From the IMG/VR virus record IMGVR_UViG_3300027887_000002: DNA of 53,361 nt; one strand, 5' to 3'. The DNA is from a virus. The number at the start of each line of letters is the position of its first letter. Within the stretch, counting starts at the first letter, position 1. Positions 34,094-53,361 of this stretch are shown piece after piece. Under the pieces are notes generated by a model. It worked only from the letters and a program-made list of their open reading frames with translations. It searched no databases and was not told the origin of the DNA. Position numbers and translations under genes: made by a program.

Positions 34094-34411
34094 CTACTCC
34101 TCTTTTTTCAGTAAGATAATGCGCTTTTTGGGGAATGGGTCTACTGCCCCATCCTTGCGCCGTATTCGCCAGTCTACTGGCTTATCGGGTACGATTTGCA
34201 CCGTTCCGAACTCTGTGGGGATTACTTCTGTTGTCCCCGCTAATTCAATAGCCTGCTTCCTTAAGGCTTTGAACTCTTTTTCTGTAAGACCGAGAGCCGT
34301 CAGCATCGCTTCTCTCGCTTCCGCTAGGCGTTTCTCCACCATCGCCCAGTGCAAAAGCGAATCCGGCGAGGTTGATTGCGTCTGCTTCGTCGTCTTTGAC
34401 TCGTTTTCCAT
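34094..34411 (-). CDS. hypothetical protein
   Basis: 105 aa, charged and helical. Its 5' 167 nt overlap the 3' tail of the RuvC-like ORF in another frame. Confidence 0.4.
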   Translation of the reverse strand: MENESKTTKQTQSTSPDSLLHWAMVEKRLAEAREAMLTALGLTEKEFKALRKQAIELAGTTEVIPTEFGTVQIVPDKPVDWRIRRKDGAVDPFPKKRIILLKKEE

Positions 34412-34859
34412 ACTTCTTCCTTACCAGCCTTTTAGACAGTCTTTTCAGATTGTCACTTTTCCTGGATTCTCCCTTTTTGAATGTGAGCATAGAACTCTGC
34501 CATTGACTGGCATTTACTACTAGAAAATCTACCCTCAACCCAAAAAGAGATCGGACAAGAGACTCTACCATACCAATAAGAGTCGACAACTTGATTGCTA
34601 CTTGGATATTTAGTTTGACGAATGGACGTTCTATTGCCACCGTGAAGTGGTCTGTTCCAACAAGAACATCGGCATCTCTAGCCCTGGTATACTGCCAGAA
34701 AATAGCGTCCGATATAGCGCAAGCCGTATCGTACAGATCTTTCTTTGGTGGCACATTTGCGGTCTTGAAGAGAGAATGACCATCCTTTGAGGCTACTACG
34801 CTAGCTACCCAGATGGGCTTTGCGTAGGCAATGTCTACTCCTATACAAAGACGGTTCAT
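34245..34859 (-). CDS. RuvC-like Holliday junction resolvase
   Basis: LCIGVDIAYAK (first acidic motif), VAIERPFV (Glu) and KDDEADAINLAGFA (C-terminal Asp pair) match the RuvC/RNase H-fold resolvase pattern. Confidence 0.65.
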   Translation of the reverse strand: MNRLCIGVDIAYAKPIWVASVVASKDGHSLFKTANVPPKKDLYDTACAISDAIFWQYTRARDADVLVGTDHFTVAIERPFVKLNIQVAIKLSTLIGMVESLVRSLFGLRVDFLVVNASQWQSSMLTFKKGESRKSDNLKRLSKRLVRKKYGKRVKDDEADAINLAGFAFALGDGGETPSGSERSDADGSRSYRKRVQSLKEAGY

Positions 34860-35491
34860 TTTATCTCCGCGAATACTTGTCCGTTGACGGTGAAAATACT
34901 AACTGATCCGGATAACTTGGTTCGTTCCGACTCATCAGGCGCCCTTTCGACTGCCACCAGTTCGTAAAATCCCGATGGGGCAGGGCTTTCTGCTGTTGTT
35001 CCTCCAAGAGTTCGCTTAAAGTCGGACGCAGTAAACTTGCCACCGTACCGTTGCTCGATTGCATATTCGATTGCTTCCTTCGGATTCTCACACCTTGAGG
35101 CAATTTGATAGAAATGTGCTGGAAGTATGCACTCAAAGTCTGGGTCGTTTTTGATGAATGTGTCGTACACACGGATATCTATTTCTGCCATCCGTATCCC
35201 GATGCCAAAGGACTTTGCTAAGTCCTTGACAGTACCATCTCCTCGGGAACTCCTACCATGAGCCGTACCAAGGATGATACATCTGACTACCCAGGAAACC
35301 TGCCCGATTAACTTTGCCTCTTCGTATAGTGCTATCAGGGCATCATCGGACATCCCTTCGATTCTCTTGCGAATACCTTTGAAATCTTCACGAAATCTTT
35401 GAAGCCCGTAGATCAGTTCCCCTGAGTGCCTTTCGTCTTCATTACTAGGGTTGCTGAGTGCGAGTTCACTTGATATATCCTGTGGTCCCAT
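34856..35491 (-). CDS. hypothetical protein
   Basis: 211 aa. ATGA-coupled to the RuvC-like gene. Confidence 0.45.
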   Translation of the reverse strand: MGPQDISSELALSNPSNEDERHSGELIYGLQRFREDFKGIRKRIEGMSDDALIALYEEAKLIGQVSWVVRCIILGTAHGRSSRGDGTVKDLAKSFGIGIRMAEIDIRVYDTFIKNDPDFECILPAHFYQIASRCENPKEAIEYAIEQRYGGKFTASDFKRTLGGTTAESPAPSGFYELVAVERAPDESERTKLSGSVSIFTVNGQVFAEIK

Positions 35492-35643
35492 CCCTTCCCC
35501 TTCTTTACCAGTTTGTCTACAAAAATATCACCATTTTCAGTGAAACTTATTACTTTTCCGTATACTACTCCGTCTTTTTCATGGTAAAATGTTACATATG
35601 CGTTGAAATCAAACGCTGTTCCATTCTTATCGTGTGGCATCAA
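35413..35643 (-). CDS. hypothetical protein
   Basis: 76 aa ORF in the leftward operon. Overlaps its neighbours. Confidence 0.35.
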   Translation of the reverse strand: MMPHDKNGTAFDFNAYVTFYHEKDGVVYGKVISFTENGDIFVDKLVKKGKGWDHRIYQVNSHSATLVMKTKGTQGN

Positions 35644-35842
35644 AATGCTCCCAGAATGCTGTACTGTCAGCAGGCGGGGTCACTAGTCGGGTCTCCAGGA
35701 GTTCGCCCTTCCTAGAGGCATTTGCGCTCGAATAAATGGCAATTACAACGGGTCTCTGACTACCCCTACCCACTAGATATCCAACATACCCTGCCAGATA
35801 TAGGAATATAAGCAAAAGACCCACGGAAAGCAAATATCCCAT
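35627..35842 (-). CDS. small membrane protein
   Basis: N-terminal hydrophobic segment GYLLSVGLLLIFLYLAGYVGYLVG. Confidence 0.4.
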   Translation of the reverse strand: MGYLLSVGLLLIFLYLAGYVGYLVGRGSQRPVVIAIYSSANASRKGELLETRLVTPPADSTAFWEHFDATR

Positions 35843-35868
35843 GGGTTCATGTGCTGGTCTATGCCTCT

Positions 35869-37110
35869 TTAGCGAGGCGACTTGCTTTGAAAGAGTGTCA
35901 ACCTTTGATTGAAGATTACGGGTATCCCTTCGTGATGTACTGGACCATTCCTGTGTTTTGCTACAATGAGCGATTTGTCGTCTATTGGACCATGCACGAA
36001 GATGATGACGTCTGCGTCTTGCTCTATTGCTCCAGAACCTCTTAAATCTGAGAATTTTGGTCTCCCTTCCGCCCTGCGTTCAACGTCCCTGTTGAACTGG
36101 GACAACATAATAACAGGGATATTTAGTTCCTTTGCTATATGTTTCGTCATGTGAGAGACAGATGCTACGTCACTATCCGACCCATCTCCACCCTGGATGC
36201 CTGGTATTAACTGTAAGTAATCTATGATGAGAAAGTCTATCTTCTGCTCCATTTTAAGTTTTCGGGCACGGGCTTTCATGTCGATGAAGTTAATAGGCGA
36301 ATCGTCTATGAACATCGGCATACTGCTTAGTTCGTTGAGGGCGAGAAAGATTCTACGCTCTTCATCGGCGTCTGTTTTCCCATGCTGGGCACGGAAGCTA
36401 TCTACACCCGATAGGGCTGAGGCTAACCCTATGACTATCTGCCTATTACTCATCTCGACAGAGAAAAACCCGCCCCGAAAACCTGCTTTTACCGCATTCA
36501 GAAGAATAGTCTTTGCTAGTGCTGTCTTGCCTTGAGATGGGCGACCTGCTATGATAACCATGTCGCCATCCTTGAACCCGCCTAGTACGTTGTCGAGGTC
36601 TATCAGACCAGACGGTACTGCGTGTATCTCTCCAGCTTTAGCCCTTCTCATGCTTTCTATGACTTCTGGGGCTATCTGAGCTGGAGATTGATACTGCCTT
36701 TTGAGAGAGAATGAAGATATAGCGAAAAGTTTTCGCTGTGCTTCCTCTAATACTGCCTCCGTGGCTCTAGTATCTTCTACTATGAGGTTCTGCCCGAGAC
36801 GCCTTAGCTCGTCTCGCATATTGATATCAACTAAAACCCTTGCGTACTGTGGTGCTCTGTAGCCTAATGTATCCGCTATGGGCAGGTTGAGGACTTCAGC
36901 CGAAGCCTTCCCTTTGCCCACTTCTTTCGCCAGACACATTATGTCAAACTCTTCACCTGCCGTGTAGAGTTTTACCAGCGCATCCCAGATTTTTTGGTAG
37001 ACTCCCGTAAAGACTTTTCGCCCCGCGATAATATCCGATACGTCTCCCATCGTATCAGAGTTATTGACAAGAGCGGCGAGTAAAACCTTTTGAATATCAT
37101 TACTTTCCAT
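35869..37110 (-). CDS. dnaB: replicative DNA helicase, DnaB family
   Basis: 413 aa. Walker A IIAGRPSQGKTALA, Walker B FLIIDYLQL, and the SQFNRDVE / GSGAIEQDAD motifs of DnaB/RecA-fold helicases. Confidence 0.9.
   Translation of the reverse strand: MESNDIQKVLLAALVNNSDTMGDVSDIIAGRKVFTGVYQKIWDALVKLYTAGEEFDIMCLAKEVGKGKASAEVLNLPIADTLGYRAPQYARVLVDINMRDELRRLGQNLIVEDTRATEAVLEEAQRKLFAISSFSLKRQYQSPAQIAPEVIESMRRAKAGEIHAVPSGLIDLDNVLGGFKDGDMVIIAGRPSQGKTALAKTILLNAVKAGFRGGFFSVEMSNRQIVIGLASALSGVDSFRAQHGKTDADEERRIFLALNELSSMPMFIDDSPINFIDMKARARKLKMEQKIDFLIIDYLQLIPGIQGGDGSDSDVASVSHMTKHIAKELNIPVIMLSQFNRDVERRAEGRPKFSDLRGSGAIEQDADVIIFVHGPIDDKSLIVAKHRNGPVHHEGIPVIFNQRLTLFQSKSPR
36723..36735. repeat. CGAAAA-G-TTTTCG palindrome copy
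   Basis: gcgaaaagttttcgc inside dnaB, read as QRKLFA on the minus strand. Confidence 0.85.
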
Positions 37111-37276
37111 TAGCCCCTGAATGTTTTCGAGAGATTGCAGGACGAATGAGCGTTTTCCCTTGCTTTACCAGCGTACAGCCTGTCTTTTGGTGGATCTTCT
37201 TGATGTCCCGTATCTCATCCTTACTGGTCGAGAATACTGTATGACCACAAGTATTACAGCGGAAGCTGTATGTCAT
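37100..37276 (-). CDS. small zinc-ribbon-like protein (58 aa, below the ORF-track cutoff)
   Basis: Hand translation: MTYSFRCNTCGHTVFSTSKDEIRDIKKIHQKTGCTLVKQGK.... Its stop overlaps the dnaB start. Confidence 0.35.
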   Translation of the reverse strand: MTYSFRCNTCGHTVFSTSKDEIRDIKKIHQKTGCTLVKQGKTLIRPAISRKHSGANGK

Positions 37277-37460
37277 CGACGGCTTTCCATGGGATTGTGG
37301 CTGTATAAATAAGGTTTACATCATCTCCGTACCGCATCTCCCTCTGCATCCGAATCTCTTTCCTGGTGAAATCTATAGAAAGTAAGTTCCAAATTCTACC
37401 GTCAAAACTTACTTTACTATCGGATGTAAATTTTGTATTTTTGACTTCTTCGTCTGTCAT
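37254..37460 (-). CDS. hypothetical protein
   Basis: 68 aa. ATGA-coupled to the upstream gene. Confidence 0.4.
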   Translation of the reverse strand: MTDEEVKNTKFTSDSKVSFDGRIWNLLSIDFTRKEIRMQREMRYGDDVNLIYTATIPWKAVDDIQLPL

Positions 37461-37699
37461 ACTTTCCTTTCCAAGACTTCTTCCAGTCTTTCCATTGCAT
37501 CCAGGAATGCTTCTTCGGTCTTTTCATCGCAAATCCGCGTACCCCAGTCATACTGGAAGACTACTTCTTGGGCTAGTTCTTCGACTTTTGTGAGATACTT
37601 CAGGATTTGGTCAACATCAGACCTGCAATAGAAGAATCCGTCGTCATCCCAGACGAATCCCTTGGTCTTAGACCATGAGACTGGATGCAATTTATCCAT
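37457..37699 (-). CDS. hypothetical protein
   Basis: Start taken at internal ATG 37699 (MDKLHPVSW...), which overlaps the upstream stop by 8 nt. Confidence 0.4.
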   Translation of the reverse strand: MDKLHPVSWSKTKGFVWDDDGFFYCRSDVDQILKYLTKVEELAQEVVFQYDWGTRICDEKTEEAFLDAMERLEEVLERKV

Positions 37700-37874
37700 T
37701 TTGCTTGTCCCACTCAACAGAACGAAGTGCCAGATGCAGTTTCTCTGTTGTCCAATCAAGCAAGAGTTTAGCCTTTCTATACTCCTCTACATTGGAGTTT
37801 TTAAGACCTGCCATGACTTCTCTTGCCTTGACCCATTTGAGTCCAGTAATAATTACTTTTTCTTCTGGTGTCAT
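37692..37874 (-). CDS. hypothetical protein
   Basis: 60 aa. ATG overlaps the ERF stop (ATGA). Confidence 0.4.
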   Translation of the reverse strand: MTPEEKVIITGLKWVKAREVMAGLKNSNVEEYRKAKLLLDWTTEKLHLALRSVEWDKQNG

Positions 37875-38707
37875 ACGAATGGAATGATTTTATCGAGTGT
37901 TTTCATTACGTCAGAGCGAGTGTCTTCCGATAAGTCTGCGAACTTTTCGGCACCCTTGCTCTGGATGATTGTGCTTGCAGTACCTATAAACTCCTCTACT
38001 CCTGCCAAAAAGTCAGCCTGAGCAGAAGCTCCTTTTATGTCCATTGGGTCTTTCACGTGATAATTTTCTACGAATTGATCGTAGTATTTCGTGAATTTTC
38101 CAAAGACATTGTAGTATTTTACCTTGATTTCAGGCAAGATATTGGCAAAACTGACAGATTTTGGCTCCTCAGTCTTTCTGAAGTTAAACTTGCTCTTCGG
38201 GGGCGGTTTCAAGATATCTGTCGGTTCTTTGGCGACTGGAACACTCTTGAAATCATCGTATGGCTTTGGACCAACAGAAACTACTTCATAGTCTTCGTTC
38301 TCTGTATCGACTTTCTCGTTCGTCGCGATGCAGAAAGCCTGGACAAGTGCGTACTTGTGAGCCGCTGACATTGCTTTGTTGCATCCCTTGTCGCCAGAAT
38401 CCATAGCTTCTCCCTCTGTCGTTGCAACAACGAAGCTTCCATCGGTAGCCATGAAGGTGTAGGCGACACGCAGGAGGGTTGTGAAGATTGCCGTACCACG
38501 GTCATTTTTCCTTTCTTCTCGTATCATTTCCTTGACGTCAGGGATGCAGATGATCTCGTGCTTTCCCAAAAGGGAATGCAGTTCGTTGTAGATGTCATCT
38601 ATCCCTCTGAATTTGTACTTCAGGTTGACGTTTTGCTGGTTCTTACCAATGGGACTCATTTCCCGCATGATAAGAGCCATTTGTTTGACTATCAGCATTT
38701 CTGCCAT
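37871..38707 (-). CDS. erf: ERF-family single-strand annealing recombinase
   Basis: IGKNQQNVNLKYKFRGIDDIYNEL..., GEAMDSGDKGCNKAMSAAHKYALVQAFCI matches the conserved ERF core pattern. Confidence 0.8.
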   Translation of the reverse strand: MAEMLIVKQMALIMREMSPIGKNQQNVNLKYKFRGIDDIYNELHSLLGKHEIICIPDVKEMIREERKNDRGTAIFTTLLRVAYTFMATDGSFVVATTEGEAMDSGDKGCNKAMSAAHKYALVQAFCIATNEKVDTENEDYEVVSVGPKPYDDFKSVPVAKEPTDILKPPPKSKFNFRKTEEPKSVSFANILPEIKVKYYNVFGKFTKYYDQFVENYHVKDPMDIKGASAQADFLAGVEEFIGTASTIIQSKGAEKFADLSEDTRSDVMKTLDKIIPFV

Positions 38708-38708
38708 A

Positions 38709-38915
38709 CTAGTTCCCTTTCACACCATCATCGAATCCTTCCGCCCTTACGACGGACAGGCATTGCTTACAAGGTTCTACTGTGATATATACCACTTCCT
38801 GATACTGTTTTGCAACTGAGATTTCTTCCCCTAGTTCTGTTTGAGTTTGGAGGAAGATTACAGATACTGGTTCGCCACAATGCGTACATCGTGCGTTTAC
38901 TCTGATATCGTCCAT
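38709..38915 (-). CDS. small zinc-ribbon protein
   Basis: CTHCGEP ... CKQC pairs. 68 aa. Confidence 0.4.
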   Translation of the reverse strand: MDDIRVNARCTHCGEPVSVIFLQTQTELGEEISVAKQYQEVVYITVEPCKQCLSVVRAEGFDDGVKGN

Positions 38916-39694
38916 TATGCTTTCAGAGCCATCATAGCTCCGTCCCGAATCTTTGATTCATTGATTGTGTCTACGATGTAGTTTGCCTTCCAGTGTGGCT
39001 GATCGCCACTCAGGAACTTGTTTACTGCCGCTTCCAGAGAGACATACATCGAACGGGAAGCGTTCTGCAGAAGAAACCCTGCGTCTGGAGTCCGGTACTC
39101 GACAATACCTTTGTCGTCTTTCCACCTGAAAGCTCCAGCTTTCCCGTATATCTGCCGTCTTATTTTGCTCCATTCGTCTCCATAGGCGAGAGAGAGAAGT
39201 CCTACTGTTGAATCCAGATACCTAACAAATTTGCATACTTCCTCGAACTTTGTCAGCTCCGGAATCTGCACAGTCATATGTCCACCAGCAAAGCGGAAAG
39301 GATAGACTTCTGCGTCAACGTCTACCTTGTTTGTTTCCTGTGTATAGGCGTTGAAGTCTGGCATACAGCCCATCTCATACAGGTCTATCGTCTTATCCTC
39401 TTCTGGGATACTGGATATGTCCATCCCGACCTTCCGATGCACTCTGAGACCGATACCTTGAAGGATTCTAGCCCCATCATTCATCAGATTCTCCAGGTTG
39501 TGGGATACTTCAATAGCATCTCCTGGGGTTGGATTCAGCTCCAGAGCCAGCCCATCTCGGTTAAACCCACCACATTTCGAGTGTGCTGTTACAATCTTCG
39601 GAAAAGGCAGGAAATCTGTTGGAGGACAAGCTAAACCTGAACTAACCTTTTCACAGAGAAGTTCAGGATCACCACCCATCAAACGGTAATTCAT
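38915..39694 (-). CDS. COOH-NH2 ligase (amidoligase, gamma-glutamyl-cysteine synthetase/GCS2 superfamily; phiEco32-like type 2)
   Basis: N-terminal GGDPELL, GLALELNPTPG and RFAGGHMTV resemble the phage amidoligase pattern (acidic start strand, LE-x-RP/NP strand, GxH strand). Needs an HMM check. Confidence 0.55.
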   Translation of the reverse strand: MNYRLMGGDPELLCEKVSSGLACPPTDFLPFPKIVTAHSKCGGFNRDGLALELNPTPGDAIEVSHNLENLMNDGARILQGIGLRVHRKVGMDISSIPEEDKTIDLYEMGCMPDFNAYTQETNKVDVDAEVYPFRFAGGHMTVQIPELTKFEEVCKFVRYLDSTVGLLSLAYGDEWSKIRRQIYGKAGAFRWKDDKGIVEYRTPDAGFLLQNASRSMYVSLEAAVNKFLSGDQPHWKANYIVDTINESKIRDGAMMALKA

Positions 39695-39695
39695 T

Positions 39696-40190
39696 CTAAT
39701 ACAGAGGCTCGTTTAATTTGATTGGATACCCAAGATCTTTTGACTTTTGTGTAAGTTCTTTTGTCCATTCCTTGATTTTTTCTCCGTGAAACCATGCCCT
39801 GCTCCATTTCATCCCAGGATGTTCTTTTGCCCAGTCTACATATTCCTCTTTAGTCGGAGCCGGATGCAATAGTGCGATGCAGTCATACTGATCTGAACTG
39901 TTTGACTTCCCAAGCGGAAGTTTGCACCATCCGAAATCCGTCAGAGCTTTAATGAGTTTCCCGTATGGTTTATTTGACGGGAAGTACGCTACCATGGTTT
40001 TGTGCCCCGCAGTAAGCGCCGGATATGTCATTGCTCTGACAAGTTCATCATAGTTTTCATCGCAGATGAAAGAAAGAAACTTTGAATATCCGCCTACTTC
40101 TATGATATGGCAACAGCTTTGGGAGTTATAATACCCCATATTGCGAGTAAACCATTCGATCGGATAGAGATTTTTACTAGTTGATGGCAT
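39696..40190 (-). CDS. hypothetical protein of the amidoligase module
   Basis: 164 aa. Sits between an amidoligase and the amidotransferase with overlapping or abutting ends. Confidence 0.45.
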   Translation of the reverse strand: MPSTSKNLYPIEWFTRNMGYYNSQSCCHIIEVGGYSKFLSFICDENYDELVRAMTYPALTAGHKTMVAYFPSNKPYGKLIKALTDFGWCKLPLGKSNSSDQYDCIALLHPAPTKEEYVDWAKEHPGMKWSRAWFHGEKIKEWTKELTQKSKDLGYPIKLNEPLY

Positions 40191-41154
40191 ACTGTATTCC
40201 TTGTGAGGTTAGTTGAAAGTGTAAGTCTGCAAGATCAATTCCATATGCTGGGTTGCTTCTTTGTTGCACCGGATATTGTTGACCTCCACCTCTGCCTCCA
40301 CGATTGAAAAAAGATTGCTGTCCATCTCCGTAAACCCCATACTCTGAACCATAAACCTTTGTCTCTTGGATTGGTTCCAATCTTTCGAACCGTGGATCTC
40401 TCTTTGCCTTTGTCTCATAAACGTGCTTCGTTCTGACGAATACCAAGTTATCCTTGACTACCTCTAACCCATTGTCAACAGTCACTTTACAGAGTTTGTT
40501 CTCTGCCATATTCCACCATGTACCAACAGAGAGGCTCTTGATGTTATGGTTTGTTTCTTCCCATGCAAGAGGGTCTGTGATTTCCGTAGTGGAACCGAAT
40601 ACCAGACTATCAGAAACTCTCTCGTATCCGTACACGATTGGGTTATGGTGCCTGATAAGGTAGAGATCGCCAGTCGGTTTATGTACAAATGCTAGAGCAA
40701 ATCCATCGTCGTCGCACAACATTTCCAGTCCGTCAAGTCCAAATTCCTGCAAATATGATACTGCGATCTCGGAATCACATTTGCTGTTGTACTTGTAATC
40801 CTTGATGATAGGAGAGTCGTGAAGGATGCCATTGTGAATAAGAATCCAGTCTTTCGACTCGTGAGGATGGTTATTTTCGTTATCCTTTGCAGGAGCGAAG
40901 AATCTTCCCGATGCCGCCTTTCTGTTGTGAATGATGCAGAACCTATCTTTTACTGCTATTGCCAGCTCTTTTTCGTGATCGCTACAGAATTTTATTGCAG
41001 TCTGTGGTTCTTTTACTATTCCGATACTTGGACTGTATATACCTACAGCATCTCCGCCTCTGGAGTGTGTAGATATAATACAATCAGCGAGCTGTTCCGA
41101 CGAAAATCCTTTGCCTTTCTTTGAAAATCTGTAGAATCCAGCTATTCCACACAT
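40177..41154 (-). CDS. stand-alone class-II (Ntn) glutamine amidotransferase domain protein
   Basis: Canonical MCGIAG N-terminus (catalytic Cys2), HNRKASGR.. and HNGIL motifs. Low-complexity Gly/Gln C-terminal tail (GGRGGGQQYPVQQR). No fused synthetase domain is visible. Confidence 0.75.
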   Translation of the reverse strand: MCGIAGFYRFSKKGKGFSSEQLADCIISTHSRGGDAVGIYSPSIGIVKEPQTAIKFCSDHEKELAIAVKDRFCIIHNRKAASGRFFAPAKDNENNHPHESKDWILIHNGILHDSPIIKDYKYNSKCDSEIAVSYLQEFGLDGLEMLCDDDGFALAFVHKPTGDLYLIRHHNPIVYGYERVSDSLVFGSTTEITDPLAWEETNHNIKSLSVGTWWNMAENKLCKVTVDNGLEVVKDNLVFVRTKHVYETKAKRDPRFERLEPIQETKVYGSEYGVYGDGQQSFFNRGGRGGGQQYPVQQRSNPAYGIDLADLHFQLTSQGIQYAIN

Positions 41155-41170
41155 TATGTGTTTGCCCCTT

Positions 41171-42856
41171 TCACATATTTTTGATTAGGTCTTGAACAAA
41201 CATCTTGACTCTATTGCGTGATCCCCTACTAGCACGTAACAGCTCGTTCAGTAGTTGCCTGCTTATTCCAAAGTATAGAACTGGTCTTTTTAGTGCTGAT
41301 TCGTTGTATCCTAGCACTTTACTAATTCTCACGGCTACTTCTGCACGATTTTCAATGAACTCCTTAACAGAGTTTGGTATTCCTTCTGGATTGGTTGTTG
41401 ATAGACATACCATCCTGTCCCTGTCTCCAGTATATACAAGAACAGTTTTGAAGAGCTTCTGTGGATGATATATCTTGAATGGACTAATCTCCAGTCCGGA
41501 TTCATTTGCGAAATGTACTTCGATATCACATTCGAAGTCCTTTTCGAATGGTCTATTGAACCACGTTCTCAAGATGGGAACGTCTAGGCGTTGCTTGCCT
41601 TGTATGAAGTTGACAACATACTGAATACTATCGGCGTATTTGTCAAAGTCTTCAAGTCCTTCGTACCACTTGATTGAGAAGTTTGTTTCATCGAAGGCAT
41701 ACGGCTTGGTTGCTACTGTGGCTGTTTTGACGATACACCATGCAATCGCAAACACTCCAAGAGTCATATCTCTGTCAATACAGGTGGTGGGTGGTCTACG
41801 CCACTCCCATCCATTATGACCAAACTCTCCATGGTTTACCTTGCTTCTCCAGTCTCCGGGTTGTCCATATCCACCATCACTACTCCTTGCCCCACCAGGA
41901 AGATTGACGAGCACATTTCCGAGTAGATTGTCAAGCCAAACCACATACTGATCCGGCTGTAATCCATGCTGATTTGAGTCAGCCCTTGTATTTGAGAAGT
42001 GTATGTGAAGCCCTGTCGATCTCCTCAGGGAACGGCTACCACCACCCAGCAAATCATGTCCAGGGGGCATCTTCTTGCTCAACTCGAAGAGAATGTCCTC
42101 AACATTCTTTGTGAGTGCTTCTGGTGATCTTGCCGCTTTTGGACGGATTTCCAATGTTGCTACGTTCCCATCTGTTCCGATTGCACCATCAAGACTATCA
42201 TCGACAAAGCAGGTTGCATCGAAGAATGAGCCAGATGGATCGAATACACTAAATTCAATATCTGTCCCAATTCTAAGGTTGTCAGCCGAAAACTTTTCGT
42301 CTTTCTTTGCTGGAGTAAAAGTTTCAACAAATTCAACCAACATCTTCAGACGATCATTGACTTTCGCTAAATCTTCTGCTATTTCTGATTTACTACCTTG
42401 TATTTTTTGGTAGTAATAGAATATTAGAAGATTTCTTTCTACAAAGTAGGCTCCAGTTATATAGCCAGAGGAATTGACAAATGCAATCACACTACCCTTG
42501 AGTGTCCCACCGCCTGCTATCTTCTTAATCAGTCCAGTGGTAAGTGGACCATGACGACGCAACTCGTCCTCTGGCGGGTAGGATTCCCCAATAGTGACTG
42601 CCCTCTGAGGAAATGTGCCACTCATCCTTGGCATATGATACTTGAGATCGTCGAACGGGGCAAACTGTATAGTGTCCGACAGCAATAGCCTGAATTCTCT
42701 CTGTGTCAGACTGGTAAAGTCAGACCAAAACTGATTTCTTCCGTTTTGCGTAGGAGCTGTCATTTCCAAAGGAAACAATATATCTACTCCTTCGAACCAG
42801 TCTCTCGTATTATACGAGTACCCCGACTTCTTATCTGTGAGAATTGGAAGATTCAA
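41171..42856 (-). CDS. large protein with central COOH-NH2 ligase (amidoligase) domain
   Basis: RIGTDIEFSVFDPSG, GTDGNVATLEIRPKAARSPE and STGLHIHFS reproduce the amidoligase pattern seen in 38915-39694. The roughly 200-aa N-terminal region is unassigned. Confidence 0.55.
   Translation of the reverse strand: MNLPILTDKKSGYSYNTRDWFEGVDILFPLEMTAPTQNGRNQFWSDFTSLTQREFRLLLSDTIQFAPFDDLKYHMPRMSGTFPQRAVTIGESYPPEDELRRHGPLTTGLIKKIAGGGTLKGSVIAFVNSSGYITGAYFVERNLLIFYYYQKIQGSKSEIAEDLAKVNDRLKMLVEFVETFTPAKKDEKFSADNLRIGTDIEFSVFDPSGSFFDATCFVDDSLDGAIGTDGNVATLEIRPKAARSPEALTKNVEDILFELSKKMPPGHDLLGGGSRSLRRSTGLHIHFSNTRADSNQHGLQPDQYVVWLDNLLGNVLVNLPGGARSSDGGYGQPGDWRSKVNHGEFGHNGWEWRRPPTTCIDRDMTLGVFAIAWCIVKTATVATKPYAFDETNFSIKWYEGLEDFDKYADSIQYVVNFIQGKQRLDVPILRTWFNRPFEKDFECDIEVHFANESGLEISPFKIYHPQKLFKTVLVYTGDRDRMVCLSTTNPEGIPNSVKEFIENRAEVAVRISKVLGYNESALKRPVLYFGISRQLLNELLRASRGSRNRVKMFVQDLIKNM
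42287..42299. repeat. CGAAAA-C-TTTTCG palindrome copy
   Basis: cgaaaacttttcg inside gene 41171-42856, read as DEKFSA on the minus strand. Confidence 0.85.
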
Positions 42857-43251
42857 TGTAATGCCTCATACAATAACGAAGTTGCCAAGAATGTATAGTC
42901 TGGTGCCTGAAGATATACTATCCCCTTGTCTCCACGAGCGGAACTATCTCTGTAGAACTTTCTGACTGGTGTGACTACGTAGACAGATTTTCTTTGTCCG
43001 TCTATAGTCACTTTCTTTGCGTAGTTTTGTATCGTTCCTCCATACTCAAACAGAGAACCTCCGGTGGCTACGTAGGTATGTTCTCCATCTGCTACTACGT
43101 CTCCTGGTGATACTTGTTTATATTTCATGTTGTCATTCTCTTCTCCTGTTTCTTCTGGTGGAATCTCAAAAATTCTTGTAGTTGAAGTACCAGCGACCCA
43201 ATTAGCAAATGCTTGTGGATCGATGGTTATACTACTGTTTGATCCCGGCAT
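42853..43251 (-). CDS. hypothetical protein of the amidoligase module
   Basis: 132 aa. ATGA-coupled. Confidence 0.45.
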   Translation of the reverse strand: MPGSNSSITIDPQAFANWVAGTSTTRIFEIPPEETGEENDNMKYKQVSPGDVVADGEHTYVATGGSLFEYGGTIQNYAKKVTIDGQRKSVYVVTPVRKFYRDSSARGDKGIVYLQAPDYTFLATSLLYEALH

Positions 43252-43678
43252 CGTCTAGCTCCTTCCGACGTTTCACCTCTCCAGAAGCTATGATATACTG
43301 TATCTTTTCCAGCTCCTCGATATGATCCATCCTTTTCATGTATAGTTCTTGTCCCTTGACGAAATATGGGATTATCTCTTTTACTGCAGGATCTTCTCGA
43401 ATTGCCCTGTCTGCACCCATGGTTCCATTTTTTGAGACCGAATACATGACACTACCGACCTTGATATAATCTTTCACTGGTGGTACTATTACTCTGTTTC
43501 TGTCGATGGTATCGCAGTATCCTACCTGATCCCTCCAAGTCTGATCTGTCGCGGATTCCGGAGCATAAATATGCGACTTGAATGGTCTCATTATGCAGAA
43601 AATCTTCACAATATCTGCAACAGAGAAGTTGCCCTTGACAAGCCTTTTAGTTAGCTTTTTCAAACTCTTCGATGTCAT
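43232..43678 (-). CDS. hypothetical protein of the amidoligase module
   Basis: 148 aa. Ends overlap the neighbouring genes. Confidence 0.45.
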   Translation of the reverse strand: MTSKSLKKLTKRLVKGNFSVADIVKIFCIMRPFKSHIYAPESATDQTWRDQVGYCDTIDRNRVIVPPVKDYIKVGSVMYSVSKNGTMGADRAIREDPAVKEIIPYFVKGQELYMKRMDHIEELEKIQYIIASGEVKRRKELDDAGIKQ

Positions 43679-44372
43679 GTGACTCTCTGATTATGAGTTC
43701 TTCGACTAATCTTGCCCTTTCGAATAGCTTTTCTGTTTTCTCGTACAAAGCAATCAATGGTTGCATAGCTTCCATTGGAACTTTGTCTGAGTAGGTGACT
43801 GTTTGCCGTGGCGCTACTTGCATATTCATAATTGACTGCGCCAGAGAATACTTGATCTTGTCTACTGTAACCGTTTTGTAATCGGTAAGGCTACACCCCC
43901 AAAATCTAGCAAATTCATGCATCAGTTTTGCCATATCCAAGGTAGTGTAATATCCTACCGTTTCTTTTTCCTTTGGCTCCTCTGATGTTGTTATTCCAAG
44001 GATTTTATTGACTTCCTTTTCTGATTCTTTAGGGTCTACTTTCCTCAAGAATCCAGACTCATTGACAAGATGATGGTGTCCATCTCCATTCCTACATTCC
44101 TCACAGCACTCCGCAAATGCGTATGTGTATATGCCTACATGGTTCTGATCCGATGCGAAAACAGTATTCGATAAAGTTTCTTTTAGAGACACACTTACTA
44201 CGTGAAGCAATGTACCCAAGGGAAATATACGCCCGTCCGGTGTCCTGAGAGGACGCTTCAGCGAATCCGTGACAATGACTAGATCGCCTGGTTCAAAGCT
44301 AGCGGCTCGTACCGTCATCCTTCGCCTCCGAAATCGTACCAGAGCCAGAATTTTCGATAGTGCCTTTTCCAT
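43647..44372 (-). CDS. hypothetical protein of the amidoligase module
   Basis: 241 aa. Contains a Cys/His patch (ECCEECRNGDGHHH). Confidence 0.45.
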   Translation of the reverse strand: MEKALSKILALVRFRRRRMTVRAASFEPGDLVIVTDSLKRPLRTPDGRIFPLGTLLHVVSVSLKETLSNTVFASDQNHVGIYTYAFAECCEECRNGDGHHHLVNESGFLRKVDPKESEKEVNKILGITTSEEPKEKETVGYYTTLDMAKLMHEFARFWGCSLTDYKTVTVDKIKYSLAQSIMNMQVAPRQTVTYSDKVPMEAMQPLIALYEKTEKLFERARLVEELIIRESHDIEEFEKAN

Positions 44373-44382
44373 CGTTTTTTAC

Positions 44383-45243
44383 TCAACGTCTCCTCCATCT
44401 GTGATTGATGATTGCTCGTGCATATGCTTCGAGTCCACGTTCTGTGTCGATGGCTGGAGCTGTATTGACTTCCCATACTATGGATTTTCGTTTCCCATTC
44501 CTATCCCTTTCATCGAGACTGCTAATATCCACAGCCCCAAAATCAAGTCCTAGAGCTTCGATTGCTTCGAGAGAGTTCTTGATTACGCTTGGCGGTACTG
44601 CCCTTTGATGGTTGTTTACAGAGATAAACTTGTACCCATGGGAGTAATTCCTGACCATTTCCCGTGTTTCTTCGAGTATATCTCTGTCTGCGTTTGAGAT
44701 ACTGCGCTCGTCACATATCCTGTTGAATAACTCTGGATCAAACACCTTCTTTTGGACGAATAGCACTTTACCGTCAAAGACATGGACTCGATACTCTTTG
44801 TGGGTAGGGACATACTCTACTGCGTAGTTCCACTTCATTCGCGACCAGTGATCCAGCCCATTGACTATCCTGATATCTTCCCCTCTGGTATGATGGAACT
44901 TTCTCAGGAAGAATATCTGGTTGGTTATTGCCCCACGATGTCTTGCTTCGTCTACGTGCTCTCTTGGATAGAATGGTGGTACTGGAATGCTCTCACCATC
45001 TAAGACGCACAGTGTTTCGTACTTGTTTTGAGCCATTTGCATGGAGTGTAGGGGCTGGAGAATATCCCCCTCATCGAATACTCCAGGGATAATACCGCTG
45101 TATCCCCATCTGATAACTGGGCTGTATGCTGATGCCCTTTCTGGGCTAATCCCGTAGTGTACGCCGTGGGGACGTAATTCGATGAGCTTACCACCTAGCT
45201 TTCTGCCTGTTGGCTTGCAACTGGAGTGATATAGGAGAAACAC
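44383..45243 (-). CDS. ATP-grasp ligase (RimK-like)
   Basis: KEYRVHVFDGKVLFVQKKV, GYKF and LGLDFGAVDIS...IVWEVNTAPAI match the ATP-grasp C-terminal half. GTG start. Confidence 0.75.
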   Translation of the reverse strand: MFLLYHSSCKPTGRKLGGKLIELRPHGVHYGISPERASAYSPVIRWGYSGIIPGVFDEGDILQPLHSMQMAQNKYETLCVLDGESIPVPPFYPREHVDEARHRGAITNQIFFLRKFHHTRGEDIRIVNGLDHWSRMKWNYAVEYVPTHKEYRVHVFDGKVLFVQKKVFDPELFNRICDERSISNADRDILEETREMVRNYSHGYKFISVNNHQRAVPPSVIKNSLEAIEALGLDFGAVDISSLDERDRNGKRKSIVWEVNTAPAIDTERGLEAYARAIINHRWRRR

Positions 45244-45307
45244 TACCTTCCCCTTTCTTTTGCTGATATGATGATTACTATGATAATCAGGAGGGCTATC
45301 CAGTATC

Positions 45308-45568
45308 CTAGGTACATATATACCCTAGCATTTCTGTAGCCTTCTCGAATCGGGCTACTCCATCCTGTCTAGAGATGGGCTTCATTTGCCAGTTACACTT
45401 GGCATATCCCTTGCCTACTGCGCTGGTTTCAACCATCACGCCTTTATCCCACTGGTACAATTCCACATAGTACACATAGTACCTGCTGATCTCCGTAATA
45501 TAGCGTACTAGGCTCTTTTTACGGTTATCCTGGTACCACTGACCTGGCTTAAACGGGAATTCCTTCAT
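45308..45568 (-). CDS. hypothetical protein
   Basis: 86 aa. ATGA-coupled. Confidence 0.4.
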   Translation of the reverse strand: MKEFPFKPGQWYQDNRKKSLVRYITEISRYYVYYVELYQWDKGVMVETSAVGKGYAKCNWQMKPISRQDGVARFEKATEMLGYICT

Positions 45569-45723
45569 AGATCATACTTTTGGGCGATATTGACTATGAG
45601 TGAGAGAGTCCACAGAAGAGCCATGCCTATGAATAGGACAGAGATATACTTGTCCTTGTCGCTCCAGAGGAGCTTGGCGATAGAAAGGCTGGCTACTATA
45701 CCAATAAAGGGAACTGTTATCAT
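45565..45723 (-). CDS. small two-TM membrane protein
   Basis: Internal ATG 45723 overlaps the upstream TGA (ATGA). Translation: MITVPFIGIVASLSIAKLLW...ISVLFIGMALLWTLSLIVNI. Confidence 0.4.
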   Translation of the reverse strand: MITVPFIGIVASLSIAKLLWSDKDKYISVLFIGMALLWTLSLIVNIAQKYDL

Positions 45724-46190
45724 GCCGTGACTGCCTCGGTGTTGCCTACTTCGAGAATCAGGCATTGCTTGGGATGAAATACTACCTTGACCCCTTGAAT
45801 AACGTGCTTGCCGATCTCTCGGGCACATTCCTGGATTGCCATACCGCGCTCAATCTCTCGCTGGACTTCGCGGGTGAATGTACTCTGAGCCTTGGTAGCA
45901 CCCTTGGAGCGATGCAGTACCATGGTAGCGATCTCTGGGGGAATCACGATCTCCTTCTTGAACTTCATGCTGTAGGAGATGGTACATGAGACCTTTGCAT
46001 TGGCTCGCTTATTAGGCTTGATTTCGACGCTCTCCAAGCCTACTAAGAGATTCTTGAGCCTGAAAATATGCGCATTGACAGGCATAAGATGAGACTTCGC
46101 TGTCTCACCTATGGCAATCTTCTGCGCCTTGATAGGCTTCGCAACCGAAACCTCTTCGGTTACTGGTCCTACTGCCAGCATATCTTTCAT
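45720..46190 (-). CDS. hypothetical protein
   Basis: 156 aa. Preceded by palindrome 46219-46231. Confidence 0.45.
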   Translation of the reverse strand: MKDMLAVGPVTEEVSVAKPIKAQKIAIGETAKSHLMPVNAHIFRLKNLLVGLESVEIKPNKRANAKVSCTISYSMKFKKEIVIPPEIATMVLHRSKGATKAQSTFTREVQREIERGMAIQECAREIGKHVIQGVKVVFHPKQCLILEVGNTEAVTA

Positions 46191-46218
46191 GTTATCCTTT
46201 CATTGGTGGTGAAATAGG

Positions 46219-46231
46219 CGAAAACTTTTCG
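46219..46231. repeat. CGAAAA-C-TTTTCG palindrome copy (intergenic)
   Basis: ggcgaaaacttttcgcc, a 17-nt extended palindrome, 29 nt upstream of ATG 46190 (minus strand). Confidence 0.85.
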
Positions 46232-46395
46232 CCTTAGTACCGTACCCACACCTAGCGCGTGGTGACTGGCACTCGCGGTAAAGCCAAGGCTAATTTACCC
46301 ATTACTCGGACTAGTCCTGGTACCTTGGCGTTGTTTTGCCGTCCTCCCAGTGTACGGTACGAGATCAGGCGTAATGCCTTACTCGGGGGTACTAC
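46232..46395 (-). ncRNA. about 165-nt element with nested long-range inverted repeats (structured RNA or DNA element)
   Basis: GTACCGTAC (46237-46245) / GTACGGTAC (46352-46360). GCCAAGG (46283-46289) / CCTTGGC (46323-46329). AGGC-gtaat-GCCT (46367-46379). GGACTAGTCC palindrome (46308-46317). The element begins at the stop of ORF 46392-46658. Confidence 0.3.
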
Positions 46396-46658
46396 ATTGT
46401 AGCTACTGCTTGCTTCGACTGCTTCTCAGCTTTCTCGGCGAGCTTCTGTTCGGTGGTTTTTGGAGTAATCAGCGTATGGTACAGGCTGAGTTGCCCCTTC
46501 TCTCCATTGAGCCACGGTGCTTTACCACACACCATGACCATTGGCTTGTGGCTCGAAGTGCTAAAGCGAGTCTCACCTACCAATGTAAATGGACGACCAC
46601 CGTTAATACGAAGTTCGACCGTTACTGGCTTGCCTTCTACGAAGGTAAAGTCTGACAA
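46392..46658 (-). CDS. hypothetical protein
   Basis: 88 aa ORF co-oriented with its neighbours. Confidence 0.4.
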   Translation of the reverse strand: MSDFTFVEGKPVTVELRINGGRPFTLVGETRFSTSSHKPMVMVCGKAPWLNGEKGQLSLYHTLITPKTTEQKLAEKAEKQSKQAVATM

Positions 46659-46726
46659 GGGTATTGGTCTCCTTGGTACAACGTACAGATTCCCACCGAT
46701 ACTGCTGGTTTGGGCATGAATTACTA

Positions 46727-46842
46727 GGGCTACAGGGGGAATCCAACCCCCATCCCGTTACTTACCGCAAGCCGGGGGGACTCAATGAGTCACAAGGCTA
46801 ACTCGGTAGATTCCAAGCGGGACGCCTTGCATGACTATAGCC
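46727..46842 (-). ncRNA. GC-rich structured element with acceptor-like closing stem and T-arm-like hairpin
   Basis: Minus strand: GGCTATA...TGTAGCC closing stem, GGGGG-TTGGATT-CCCCC hairpin, GACTC-ATT-GAGTC hairpin. It starts 16 nt after the stop of ORF 46859-47056. It is not a canonical tRNA. Confidence 0.3.
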
Positions 46843-46858
46843 TGACCACCACCAATGG

Positions 46859-47056
46859 TCAAAGTGCTCTGGCAAGCTCCAAGAGAGACTCTGCACCGTC
46901 TATCACGGTCTGCTTGCGTCGAGCAAGTTTCTCGCCAGTAATACCTGCTTTAAGTGCTGTAAAGTAGGCACCAAGGTCATTGCGGAGGGTAAACTGCATC
47001 TCTGCAATAGGTGTACCTTGTCCTGGTCTGGGAGGTCGTTCTGCTCTTTCAGCCAC
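46859..47056 (-). CDS. hypothetical protein
   Basis: 65 aa ORF, co-oriented. Confidence 0.35.
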   Translation of the reverse strand: MAERAERPPRPGQGTPIAEMQFTLRNDLGAYFTALKAGITGEKLARRKQTVIDGAESLLELARAL

Positions 47057-47212
47057 GGTATTTTGTGTTTGTTGGACAATGCCAGCCTATGTGCTGGACA
47101 ACAGTCCGGGCTGGGGGTGCTCCCCTGTATTTTTGTCCGTACGGTTCCTACCCGTGTTTAGGGGATAGGTCAGCCCGAATTTGGATGCCCTAAATCCAGT
47201 TACAGGGCATAG

Positions 47213-47278
47213 GGGGCAGAGTAGGGATTGAACCTACATTGACCGATTTTCTCGGGGTCTTACTTAGACGATCTGCCC
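47213..47278 (-). ncRNA. tRNA-like element with truncated anticodon arm
   Basis: Minus strand: acceptor GGGCAGA/TCTGCCC (7 bp), D-arm GTCT-AAGTA-AGAC, T-arm GTAGG-TTCAATC-CCTAC. The anticodon arm is only CCGA-GAAAA-TCGG (13 nt instead of 17). It starts 6 nt after the stop of gene 47285-47521. Confidence 0.5.
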
Positions 47279-47284
47279 AAAGGA

Positions 47285-47521
47285 CTAGAGTAATACTACT
47301 GCTTTCTCGACTTGGTCGAATAGGGCTTTACTAGCCTCTTTCCGCATAGTTCCAATATAGGACACGCAGGAAGCAAAGCTAAAGCCTACAGTGGCAGTAA
47401 TACTACCGTCCTCTTCTTCGGCTATCTTCCTAAGAACCACGCCCTTACTGATTGTAGCTGACTTCCTATCGGTAAGGGTGCGATAATAGGGAGACCGCCT
47501 AGAAATGCTGACGGTTTCCAT
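47285..47521 (-). CDS. hypothetical protein (first gene of a leftward unit)
   Basis: 78 aa. Lies downstream of the divergent promoter region. Confidence 0.45.
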   Translation of the reverse strand: METVSISRRSPYYRTLTDRKSATISKGVVLRKIAEEEDGSITATVGFSFASCVSYIGTMRKEASKALFDQVEKAVVLL

Positions 47522-47766: not shown

Positions 47767-47795
47767 TTGACATTGATATGAGATAAATGTATAAT
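47767..47795 (+). promoter_or_regulatory. consensus sigma70 promoter (TTGACA-17 nt-TATAAT)
   Basis: TTGACA 47767-47772, 17-nt spacer, TATAAT 47790-47795. Both hexamers match the consensus perfectly. Confidence 0.7.
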
Positions 47796-48003: not shown

Positions 48004-49089
48004 ATGGAAAAACGAACCGCAATCGAAAAGACGGAAATTGATTTTTCCGCATATATGAAAACCGAACCGATGGACGAAGCAAGAAGGTTATTAAAAAGAA
48101 AGGGGATGGAATCAAAGCAGAAAGCCTGCGACATCATAGGGGAAGCTTTGACAGGGAACCCGATGAGCTATCGAACATATATGAGGCACAAGAAAACCGG
48201 AAAAGCTGTGCAATCAATCACAAGGGTTATTTTTGTCAAGAAGGCAAACAAAGCAGATTTTTCAAAGCTTGTTTCAACCTATTTCTTTGAAGAGAAAGTG
48301 ATGCCAAAAGTCACAAAGCTAAACGAGATTGACAGCGTATGTGAGGAAAAGCTAGGCGAAACAAAAAAAGCATATGTAGAAATAAACGAAGAAGTCAAAA
48401 AGCTTTTCGCGAAAGAAATGAGCGAAGCAATCAAAAAAGACAAAGGGGAAACAATCACAAAGAAAAGCAAGTTAAGCAGAAAAGCTTTTCGCAATGAACA
48501 AGGTGAATATATAACCCCTTTATATGAAGTAGTAACAAAGCCACAAAGCATAACAAGCAAGGAATCAATCATAGAAAAATATGATGCAATGGAGAAGGAT
48601 AGAAAGAGAGAAGCAAAAAAGGAAAATAAGGCGATTGAGCATATCAAGGTAGAAGTCAAGCGGAATGTGGACATTGAACGCATAACAAAAACAGTAACAA
48701 ACTATATATATTCCCTATATTATCAAATGCGTGATGACATAGGAAGCAGATTTTCAACAAAAAGCTTTTCGCATATGGCTAGGTTCTCTCCTCAAGATAT
48801 TATTTCAGCAACATTAGAACAAGCATGGCTCGAATATATGGAGAAAGGGGAATTGCCTAGCATTCAATGGCTAATGTTAACAGCAAAGAATATGTTTATG
48901 AGGGAATATACAGTCAATAGAAAATTCTCCCCCTTAGAAATTCAAGCATTTGATGTTGACAGTTTAGAACAAGGCGATATGTGGAGCGAAGAAAGGGAAG
49001 TAGAAAGTAGTGAGCTTATATCAGATTACGGTATCAATGAAAGGGCTATTATATTTAGTGCATTGCAATGTATGCCGTGGAATAGATAA
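48004..49089 (+). CDS. Lys/Glu-rich 361-aa protein; possible DNA-binding / sigma-like regulator
   Basis: AT-rich gene with its own promoters and terminator. The C-terminal DIISATLEQAWLEY....IQWLMLTAKNMFMREY loosely resembles sigma-70/ECF region 2. The gene contains three half or near copies of the palindrome (48397, 48478, 48759). Confidence 0.5.
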   Translation: MEKRTAIEKTEIDFSAYMKTEPMDEARRLLKRKGMESKQKACDIIGEALTGNPMSYRTYMRHKKTGKAVQSITRVIFVKKANKADFSKLVSTYFFEEKVMPKVTKLNEIDSVCEEKLGETKKAYVEINEEVKKLFAKEMSEAIKKDKGETITKKSKLSRKAFRNEQGEYITPLYEVVTKPQSITSKESIIEKYDAMEKDRKREAKKENKAIEHIKVEVKRNVDIERITKTVTNYIYSLYYQMRDDIGSRFSTKSFSHMARFSPQDIISATLEQAWLEYMEKGELPSIQWLMLTAKNMFMREYTVNRKFSPLEIQAFDVDSLEQGDMWSEEREVESSELISDYGINERAIIFSALQCMPWNR

Positions 49090-49101
49090 ATAACTTTTCA
49101 A

Positions 49102-49130
49102 CCCCTTGTCGATACGGCAAGGGGTTTTTT
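49102..49130 (+). terminator. rho-independent terminator
   Basis: CCCCTTG (49102-49108), 9-nt loop, CAAGGGG (49118-49124), then TTTTTT (49125-49130). It lies 12 nt after the stop of gene 48004-49089. Confidence 0.8.
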
Positions 49131-49484: not shown

Positions 49485-49561
49485 GGATTTCGTGTCTAAG
49501 ATGGGAGTAAGAGAAGAATTTGTGGCATTTGTCGCATATGTAGCCCGAGAGCTTTCTCATG

Positions 49562-53273: not shown

Positions 53274-53361
53274 AAATCCTGGGCATGACAATTGAGACAA
53301 AAGTGACATTGGGACAGGTTGTGTCGGTAGTAATCTTTGTACTGGGTATTACATACCTGGC
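53263..53361. repeat. terminal overlap copy 2 (identical to 1-99)
   Basis: Direct comparison with the window start. Confidence 0.95.

Follow-up and report, generated by a model that had tools for sequence, protein, structure and literature searches.

The gene block and the phiEco32-type cassette

A cassette of ligase and amidotransferase genes carried by phage phiEco32 and other phages is known from comparative genomics, through the computational work of Iyer, Abhiman, Burroughs and Aravind (Mol Biosyst 2009), as cited in later papers. It bears the label of a putative module or cassette for "peptidoglycan modification", possibly blocking superinfection, in reports (PMC5498523, PMC10580990, PMC6256558, PMC11318856, PMC11945000) that use this label for phiEco32, LUZ24/PaP3-like, RIO-1/HP1, CVT22 and PhiM6 phages. 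The only hint from experiment is that two derivatives obtained from a Pseudomonas phage by experimental evolution, over 15 and 30 rounds, both gained missense mutations in the amidoligase and glutamine amidotransferase (GATase) genes (PMC11450229). Here we analyze an eight-gene block of this kind (38915–45243) in the virus record IMGVR_UViG_3300027887_000002, a stretch of 53,361 nucleotides (nt) referred to below as the window; the genes of the module are numbered by its positions, and all of them lie on the minus strand and read leftward. A preliminary description of this DNA had pointed to a similar neighborhood in phiEco32-like genomes and had stated that no experimentally defined product was known for it. 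PF14395, the family of two of the ligases, indeed takes its name from phiEco32, and the homologous trio of enzymes occurs in Kuravirus, Zobellviridae and PaP3/LUZ24-type phages. Full-text searches aimed at this point, in literature up to 2025-26, found no experimentally defined product for the cassette, and as late as 2025 papers describe the module as putative.

The block encodes a RimK-like ATP-grasp ligase, two COOH-NH2 ligases of the PF14395 family, a stand-alone class-II GATase and four partner proteins. On the basis of sequence comparison, we classify it as a lineage-specific, rearranged variant of the phiEco32-type cassette and not as a new kind of system; the analysis supports the earlier finding as real and its interpretation as correct in essence. 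Phage records with relatives of the enzymes belong to Zobellviridae (HP1, RIO-1, CVT22), Kuravirus (phiEco32-like), PaP3/LUZ24-like Pseudomonas phages and Vibrio phages. The neighborhoods of HP1, CVT22 and Escherichia phage 172-1 comprise an ATP-grasp ligase, an Amidoligase_2 protein of PF12224, a PF14395 ligase and a class-II GATase, together with the gamma-glutamyl cyclotransferase GGCT in HP1 and 172-1 or a Peptidase_C26 protein in CVT22, with small unknown open reading frames (ORFs) interspersed and a primase or helicase gene adjoining. The window shares with this cassette the orthologous RimK-like ATP-grasp ligase, PF14395 ligase and class-II GATase, a second ligase of the glutamine synthetase fold, small interspersed ORFs and a place in the early/replication arm by the replicative helicase. 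The replication-cluster setting is common to CVT22, 172-1 and two of the related metagenomic contigs, L004 and L008; the related set consists of L004/L005/L007, L008 and a 56.7-kb JGI contig, which are the only related contigs found.

Unlike the described cassette, the window has as its second ligase not a PF12224 protein but a PF14395 paralogue of 561 aa, which carries extra domains at both termini. Pfam was searched with the module (E up to 1) and with 64 further ORFs of the complete genome (E up to 0.001), and PF12224, present in all three of HP1, CVT22 and 172-1, had no match in the module or in the remaining genome. The same scans detected no GGCT/AIG2-type gamma-glutamyl cyclotransferase, which many but not all members of the cassette family possess, and no Peptidase_C26. 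The window is an entire JGI metagenome contig, and its first 99 nt (1–99) are repeated exactly at 53263–53361, indicating a circularly closed, complete genome of about 53,262 bp, so that these absences are real. In addition, the window GATase lacks the C-terminal zinc ribbon, the gene order differs, and the partner genes are lineage-specific. Finally, the carrier has tape-measure and tail-tube genes and is therefore not a podovirus.

The variant shows that the indispensable core consists of the ATP-grasp ligase, one PF14395 ligase, one further ligase of the glutamine synthetase fold and the N-terminal nucleophile (Ntn) amidotransferase, and that the small partners and the zinc ribbon, as well as Amidoligase_2 and GGCT, are replaceable. 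The variant narrows the minimal set for reconstitution and extends the cassette beyond podoviruses. The cassette, predicted more than 15 years ago, is widespread, and its carriers include Pseudomonas and E. coli phages that are candidates for therapy. Cultivable carriers such as phiEco32, LUZ24 or CVT22 would be better models for its study than this uncultured phage.

The ORF listing contains eight minus-strand ORFs of 286, 241, 148, 132, 561, 325, 164 and 259 aa exactly at the coordinates given beforehand in the preliminary description. The genes had been called tightly overlapping; they are tightly packed, but overlap at only four junctions (by 32, 20, 4 and 14 nt) and are separated by gaps of 1–16 nt at the other three. 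Transmembrane segments were predicted in none of the eight proteins, which are cytoplasmic.

ATP-grasp ligase

The gene at 44383–45243 (minus strand) starts with GTG, has the ribosome-binding site GGGGAAGG and encodes a RimK-like ATP-grasp peptide ligase of 286 aa. This protein matched PHROG 2599 at 1e-25, and its NCBIfam matches were weak, the best curated one being MptN (1e-6), along with cyanophycin synthetase (6e-4). As a single sequence it gave no phmmer match to known enzymes of the RimK type, whereas a profile built from it and its phage relatives matched, over about 200 residues, cyanophycin synthase (1e-6), the alpha-L-glutamate ligase 7qys, RimK (4iwx/5zct) and Ddl in the PDB. It has in common with RimK, alpha-L-glutamate ligases and cyanophycin synthetase the fold family and the E-x-R and D...E-x-N Mg-ATP motifs, but the likeness is remote, with profile E values of 1e-6 to 5e-5. 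The residues E150-x-R152, D239 and E258-x-N260, which form the Mg-ATP motifs of the RimK-like clade, are invariant in the alignment. The PHROG match, the PDB profile matches and these invariant motifs bear out the RimK-like assignment made earlier.

The ATP-grasp proteins of the canonical cassettes were recovered by phmmer in CVT22 (7e-20), HP1 (4e-19) and 172-1 (3e-12), and relatives with 26–33% identity are present in 263 phage records. The orthologue in L004 is 31% identical.

PF14395 amidoligases

Two proteins of the block had been described as carrying the GCS2/COOH-NH2 ligase pattern. Both score above the Pfam gathering cutoff of PF14395 (25 bits) and keep the E/E/H/E-x-R pattern, and the translations contain all the motifs reported for them (561-aa protein: GTDIEF, LEIRP, GLHIHF; 259-aa protein: GGDPEL, LELNP, GGHMTV).

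The small COOH-NH2 ligase type 2 (38915–39694, minus strand, 259 aa) matched PHROG 3815 at 3e-27 and PF14395 at 1.3e-7 (31.6 bits). Its invariant residues are D9/E11, E52, H139 and E199-x-R201. Relatives with 26–33% identity occur in 113 phage records, and the L004 orthologue is 43% identical; no sequence-level relative was found in the PDB. As judged by phmmer matches in CVT22 and 172-1, this protein is the orthologue of the "COOH.NH2 ligase" of the canonical phage cassettes.

The large COOH-NH2 ligase (41171–42856, minus strand, 561 aa) matched PF14395 at 8e-13 (48.6 bits). It comprises a variable N-terminal region (residues 1–190), the PF14395 core (approximately residues 196–402, nt 41651–42271) and a conserved C-terminal domain with a basic helix (SRGSRNRVKMFVQDLIK) at its end. 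Residues E201, E236, R238, H284 and H286 are invariant in the family alignment. Its family is small, with only four other clusters among 5.8 billion, and the L004 orthologue is 37% identical. In a comparison of profiles, it was aligned with the small-ligase family by hhalign with 96% probability (E=3.6e-9, 211 columns), and it is a divergent paralogue of that family. The possibility that it is a diverged Amidoligase_2 protein (PF12224) was ruled out by an hhalign probability of 0.3%.

The AF2 model of the large ligase is confident only in the core (pLDDT about 70–90), whereas the first 190 residues and some of the C-terminal domain are modelled too poorly to be identified. All top Foldseek matches of this model were gamma-glutamylcysteine synthetase GshA (2d32), YbdK (1r8g/1tt4), GshF, glutamine synthetase and Dop; their identity is 10–15% and their TM-scores are low (0.17–0.37, with a mediocre model), so they support the fold class and nothing finer. 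The predicted core fold and the metal- and ATP-binding residues E, E, H and E-x-R are common to both PF14395 proteins and to YbdK/GCS2, gamma-glutamylcysteine synthetase, glutamine synthetase and PafA/Dop. The large ligase differs from these enzymes by its two extra domains.

Class-II amidotransferase and zinc ribbon

The gene at 40177–41154 (minus strand) encodes a stand-alone class-II (Ntn) GATase-type domain of 325 aa, which begins with MCGIAG, as reported earlier, and ends in a low-complexity tail rich in Gly and Gln. It matched Pfam GATase_6 (6e-7) and GATase_7 (5e-4), the N-terminal domains of GlmS and AsnB in NCBIfam, and PHROGs 4736 and 14519. No fused synthase domain was found with Pfam and NCBIfam. 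Residues R78, N108-G109 and D127-S128 are invariant across the phage orthologues, including those of HP1, CVT22 and 172-1, and Cys2 is conserved, being missing only from the annotated start of the phage 172-1 protein. We take R78, N108-G109 and D127 to be equivalent to R73, N98-G99 and D123 of GlmS. The N-terminal Cys and the glutamine-binding Arg, Asn-Gly and Asp of class-II enzymes are thus all in place, and the protein is, as proposed, a class-II Ntn amidotransferase with an intact active site and without a fused synthetase. The L004 orthologue is 31% identical.

Stand-alone homologues of class-II GATases can hydrolyze gamma-glutamyl amides, the precedent being EgtC of ergothioneine synthesis, and MurT/GatD is a pair of a ligase and a separate glutaminase. 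Like EgtC and MurT/GatD, the window protein is an Ntn domain with a Cys nucleophile that stands without a fused synthase beside amide-forming ligases; the comparison implies no orthology. The role of "ammonia donor" given to it in the preliminary description is an assumption, with a ligase or the 164-aa partner as candidate acceptor of the ammonia, and gamma-glutamyl hydrolysis of the EgtC type is an equally good reading.

The GATases of HP1, CVT22 and 172-1 end in a C-terminal ribbon, CxxCG..IT...CxxC, in contrast to the window protein. A 68-aa ORF with CTHCG...CKQC in its translation (38709–38915, minus strand) follows the small ligase, its start overlapping the ligase stop by 1 nt. This CxxC...CxxC protein may be the split-off ribbon domain of the GATase and a ninth member of the module, to which it is linked by the motif alone; its membership is uncertain.

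Partner proteins

Four proteins of the block had been called unrecognizable, and they matched no curated family in Pfam, PHROGs, NCBIfam or PADLOC, where only sub-threshold noise was seen. Profiles of the partners gave no match in the PDB.

Partner A was listed as an ORF of 241 aa (43647–44372, minus strand), but its most likely start is the ATG at 44318, giving a probable real gene of 223 aa at 43647–44318. This ATG is directly preceded by a ribosome-binding site, GGAGG...GAAGG, it coincides in the alignment with the homologues' MT(I/V)R start, and the recorded gene call on contig L006, which is identical to the window, also begins at 44318. A search of 5.8 billion clusters returned only partner A itself. 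It is, however, similar to the syntenic 222-aa protein of L004 and L008 (Smith-Waterman Z=10.2, BLASTP 5e-5), and the motif ECCxxC...HH (C89, C90, C93, H99 and H100) is invariant in partner A and its homologues; it is a possible metal site.

Partner B (43232–43678, minus strand) is a basic protein of 148 aa with a helical C-terminal half. It is similar to the syntenic 167-aa protein of L004 (Z=7.0, BLASTP 3e-5), and the dN/dS of its homologues in the L004/L008 pair is 0.064.

Partner C (42853–43251, minus strand) is an acidic orphan of 132 aa, the stop of which overlaps the start of the large ligase by 4 nt. Its positional counterpart in L004, a 153-aa protein, showed no significant similarity to it; a MAFFT alignment of the two gave 28% identity, with homology unproven.

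Partner D (39696–40190, minus strand, 164 aa) overlaps the GATase stop with its start by 14 nt. A HMMER scan of 1.84 billion representatives found only the protein itself and one junk repeat translation, and its AF2 model is unusable (pLDDT 49). An N-terminal QSCC motif is common to partner D and the 207–209-aa protein that follows the GATase in the relatives, and hhalign compared it with this 207-aa family at E=0.0019 and 14% probability, over 36 columns only.

The four fast-evolving partners are most plausibly specificity, scaffold or regulatory subunits.

Conservation in related contigs

In the relatives, which are independent metagenomic contigs, the gene order is small ligase, ATP-grasp ligase, 302-aa protein, 222-aa protein, 167-aa protein, 153-aa protein, large ligase, GATase, 207-aa protein, Slr1353_N protein and DnaB. 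The four enzymes, at 31–43% identity, and partners A and B keep their synteny, and the set always lies just upstream of DnaB. The co-conservation that had been proposed as a check on the module is therefore present for the four enzymes and partners A and B, but partners C (132 aa) and D (164 aa) have positional counterparts only. The L004 lineage carries an extra gene, for the 302-aa protein, without a counterpart in the window; paralogy of this protein and the 207-aa protein, considered for their common "CCG" motif, was rejected at an hhalign probability of 0.5%.

Between L004 and L008, every module gene, including those for the partners, is under purifying selection, with dN/dS of 0.03–0.18 (rough values, as dS is saturated for several genes), which indicates that these are real genes. 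In the same comparison (L004 4099–11851 vs. L008 2909–10630), the module proteins are 58–90% identical, and the 153-aa protein 55% over its alignable part, while in the flanks DnaB is 97% identical and an upstream 230-aa protein 94%. The much lower identity of the module proteins indicates that the module evolves or recombines much faster than its flanks. Contig L006 is 100% identical to the window and hence gives no polymorphism information.

The phage collection contained no near-identical or related DNA for the module, and tblastn of it with the large ligase returned nothing. Pattern scans of the viral contig collection with single proteins and with the large-ligase alignment found no relatives, nor did a scan of genome contigs, which consequently gave no prophage or host clue. 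A metagenome scan added one contig only, belonging to the known L004 lineage.

Predicted function of the module

The analysis establishes the domain identities, the catalytic residues, synteny, purifying selection and the cytoplasmic location of the proteins. From the known chemistry of the enzyme families, we infer an assembly in three steps, in which a short peptide or amide of the glutamate or gamma-glutamyl type is built on one acceptor and the Ntn protein either amidates it or trims it by a gamma-glutamyl group, and we regard this scheme as fairly probable. Three soluble cytoplasmic ligases would each activate a carboxylate as an acyl-phosphate with ATP and join it to an amine, making up to three amide bonds on one acceptor, probably of the glutamate or gamma-glutamyl type. 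The RimK-type ATP-grasp ligase would add glutamate or aspartate to a carboxylate, and ligases of the GCS2, glutamine synthetase and PafA types would activate the gamma-carboxylate of glutamate. The Ntn domain would attack the gamma-amide of glutamine or of a gamma-glutamyl group with a free head group, thereby either supplying ammonia for amidation of a carboxylate of the product or removing a gamma-glutamyl group. The product would probably be made early in infection. As for the acceptor, a cytoplasmic peptidoglycan precursor, the published idea, leading to superinfection exclusion, is a tentative candidate; a small amine or metabolite is a doubtful one, a protein is unlikely, and DNA or a nucleotide is highly unlikely.

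Several observations weigh against stepwise assembly as outlined here. No member of this cassette type has a known product, substrate or phenotype, so the chemistry follows family precedent only, and the pathway may differ from the canonical one since PF12224 Amidoligase_2 and GGCT are missing. For partners C and D, not even the closest relatives yielded detectable homologues, so the two are assigned to the unit by position alone. Nothing in the window ties the module specifically to the cell wall: its enzymes carry no peptidoglycan-binding or Mur-ligase domains, and its neighbors are replication genes and not genes for lysis or the envelope.

One alternative, which we consider doubtful, is a small-molecule pathway in which gamma-glutamyl serves as a handle: the ligases would place it on a small amine, for instance a polyamine, an amino acid or a cofactor tail, and the Ntn protein would be a gamma-glutamyl amidohydrolase and not an ammonia donor. 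Precedents are EgtA/EgtC of ergothioneine synthesis, PuuA/PuuD of putrescine use and BtrJ/BtrG of butirosin synthesis. Every recognizable family of the module acts on glutamate or gamma-glutamyl groups, and MptN, the best curated match of the ATP-grasp ligase, glutamylates a cofactor. No synthase partner domain is present in the GATase, which retains the residues holding the free alpha-amino/alpha-carboxylate head group, and the canonical cassettes add GGCT (HP1, 172-1) or a member of the gamma-glutamyl-hydrolase family Peptidase_C26 (CVT22). However, the window variant has neither GGCT nor the C26 peptidase, no transporter or further small-molecule tailoring enzyme accompanies it, and the four non-enzymatic-looking partners are hard to fit into a simple metabolite pathway.

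Another, unlikely, alternative is protein tagging, in which the RimK-like ATP-grasp ligase, the PafA-like ligases of the glutamine synthetase fold or both would modify a protein of the host or the phage with glutamate or a short peptide, the partners serving as adaptors or substrates. RimK and alpha-L-glutamate ligases are among the best matches of the ATP-grasp protein, the depupylase Dop is among the fold matches of the large ligase, and the conserved extra N- and C-terminal domains of the latter could bind a macromolecule. The fast divergence of the module between L004 and L008 (58–90% identity vs. 97% for DnaB) also fits the pressure of host interaction. On the other hand, no target can be named, and a Pup-like or S6-like substrate was sought among the partners and rejected: the C-termini of the four proteins and of their L004/L008 counterparts are not conserved across lineages and show no GGQ/GGE and no conserved acidic or Gln end. 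The lack of a conserved C-terminal Glu, Gln or Gly-Gly-type end leaves a module-encoded substrate of this kind unsupported. In a broader form of the idea, which we hold to be rather improbable, the expanded PF14395 ligase and the fast-evolving partners would constitute a macromolecule-directed tagging machine similar to pupylation or RimK modification. Such a machine, if real, would place a short gamma-glutamyl/glutamine peptide on a host or phage protein or another polymer for cell takeover or defense evasion, and would be neither a cell-wall nor a metabolite pathway.

Hypermodification of DNA or nucleotides, with an amino-acid-derived group attached to a base or nucleotide precursor, seems very improbable. 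The cassette does lie within the replication cluster beside a helicase or primase in every lineage, and in phage 172-1 genes for a dCTP deaminase and a nucleotidyltransferase are located near it. But the Pfam scans of the complete genome revealed no thymidylate-synthase-like enzyme or hydroxymethylase, as the preliminary description had stated for the DNA it read, and no DNA polymerase, and the Pfam matches include no tRNA-guanine transglycosylase/DpdA, 7-deazaguanine synthesis or nucleotide kinase family. We know of no DNA hypermodification route that employs these ligase families.

A role as auxiliary metabolic genes that boost host nitrogen or glutamine/glutamate metabolism, as proposed, indirectly, for Phage-ZRK32 with its amidoligase, GATase, GGCT and glutathione-synthase-like genes (PMC10945688), is hardly credible here, because the enzymes stand very far from the housekeeping enzymes glutamine synthetase, GlmS and AsnB and score far under the NCBIfam equivalog cutoffs, and because the phage-specific orphan partners and fast evolution are unlike those of typical auxiliary metabolic genes.

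Transcription context and other features of the genome

The early/replication genes of the phage are oriented leftward (34245–47521), and the module is located upstream of ERF and DnaB on this arm. The eight-gene block is part of a longer transcription unit and not a separate one: downstream, the tight packing runs on into the 68-aa zinc-ribbon ORF, ERF and DnaB, and a terminator scan found no convincing minus-strand terminator ahead of 35846–35819. We propose that the module is expressed from this long leftward early/replication unit. A promoter-like site (46862–46834, minus strand) with a 10/12 match to the sigma-70 consensus points leftward into the early arm.

The ORF just upstream of the module (45565–45828, minus strand) had no family match, and the C-terminal half of its product contains two hydrophobic helices (MITVPFIGIVASLSIAKLL...ISVLFIGMALLWTLSLIVNI). 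It likely encodes a membrane protein of about 52 aa, if an internal Met is the start.

The structural genes are oriented rightward (243–33816) and include those for the large terminase, portal, major head, tail-tube and tape-measure proteins. The terminase is only about 24% identical to the best of 50,697 phage records, and, together with the lack of a DNA match for the module, this indicates a very divergent tailed phage. Besides DnaB and ERF, the genome encodes an RNase_H-fold protein and a Holliday-junction-resolvase-like protein.

Two glycosyltransferase genes (7481–8659 and 8656–9582, plus strand) are located directly 3' of the major head gene in the head-morphogenesis block; one product is GT9 heptosyltransferase-like (6.5e-7) and the other belongs to Glycos_transf_1 (2.7e-15). 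They could glycosylate virion proteins or change host surface sugars.

A perfect 12/12 sigma-70 promoter (TTGACA, 17-nt spacer, TATAAT) at 47767–47795 (plus strand) is directed toward a gene for a 361-aa protein (48004–49089), which is closed by a strong terminator at 49100–49126. The pattern of promoters points to a divergent early control region and to a host that uses standard sigma-70 promoters.

A weak match (7e-4) of the 276-aa product of 50111–50941 (minus strand) to NapC/NirT was considered spurious; the protein is rich in Cys, contains several CxxC pairs and is probably of the zinc-finger type. The sole tRNA gene identified by ARAGORN and Rfam, for tRNA-Met (CAT), is located between the two arms (49561–49633, minus strand).

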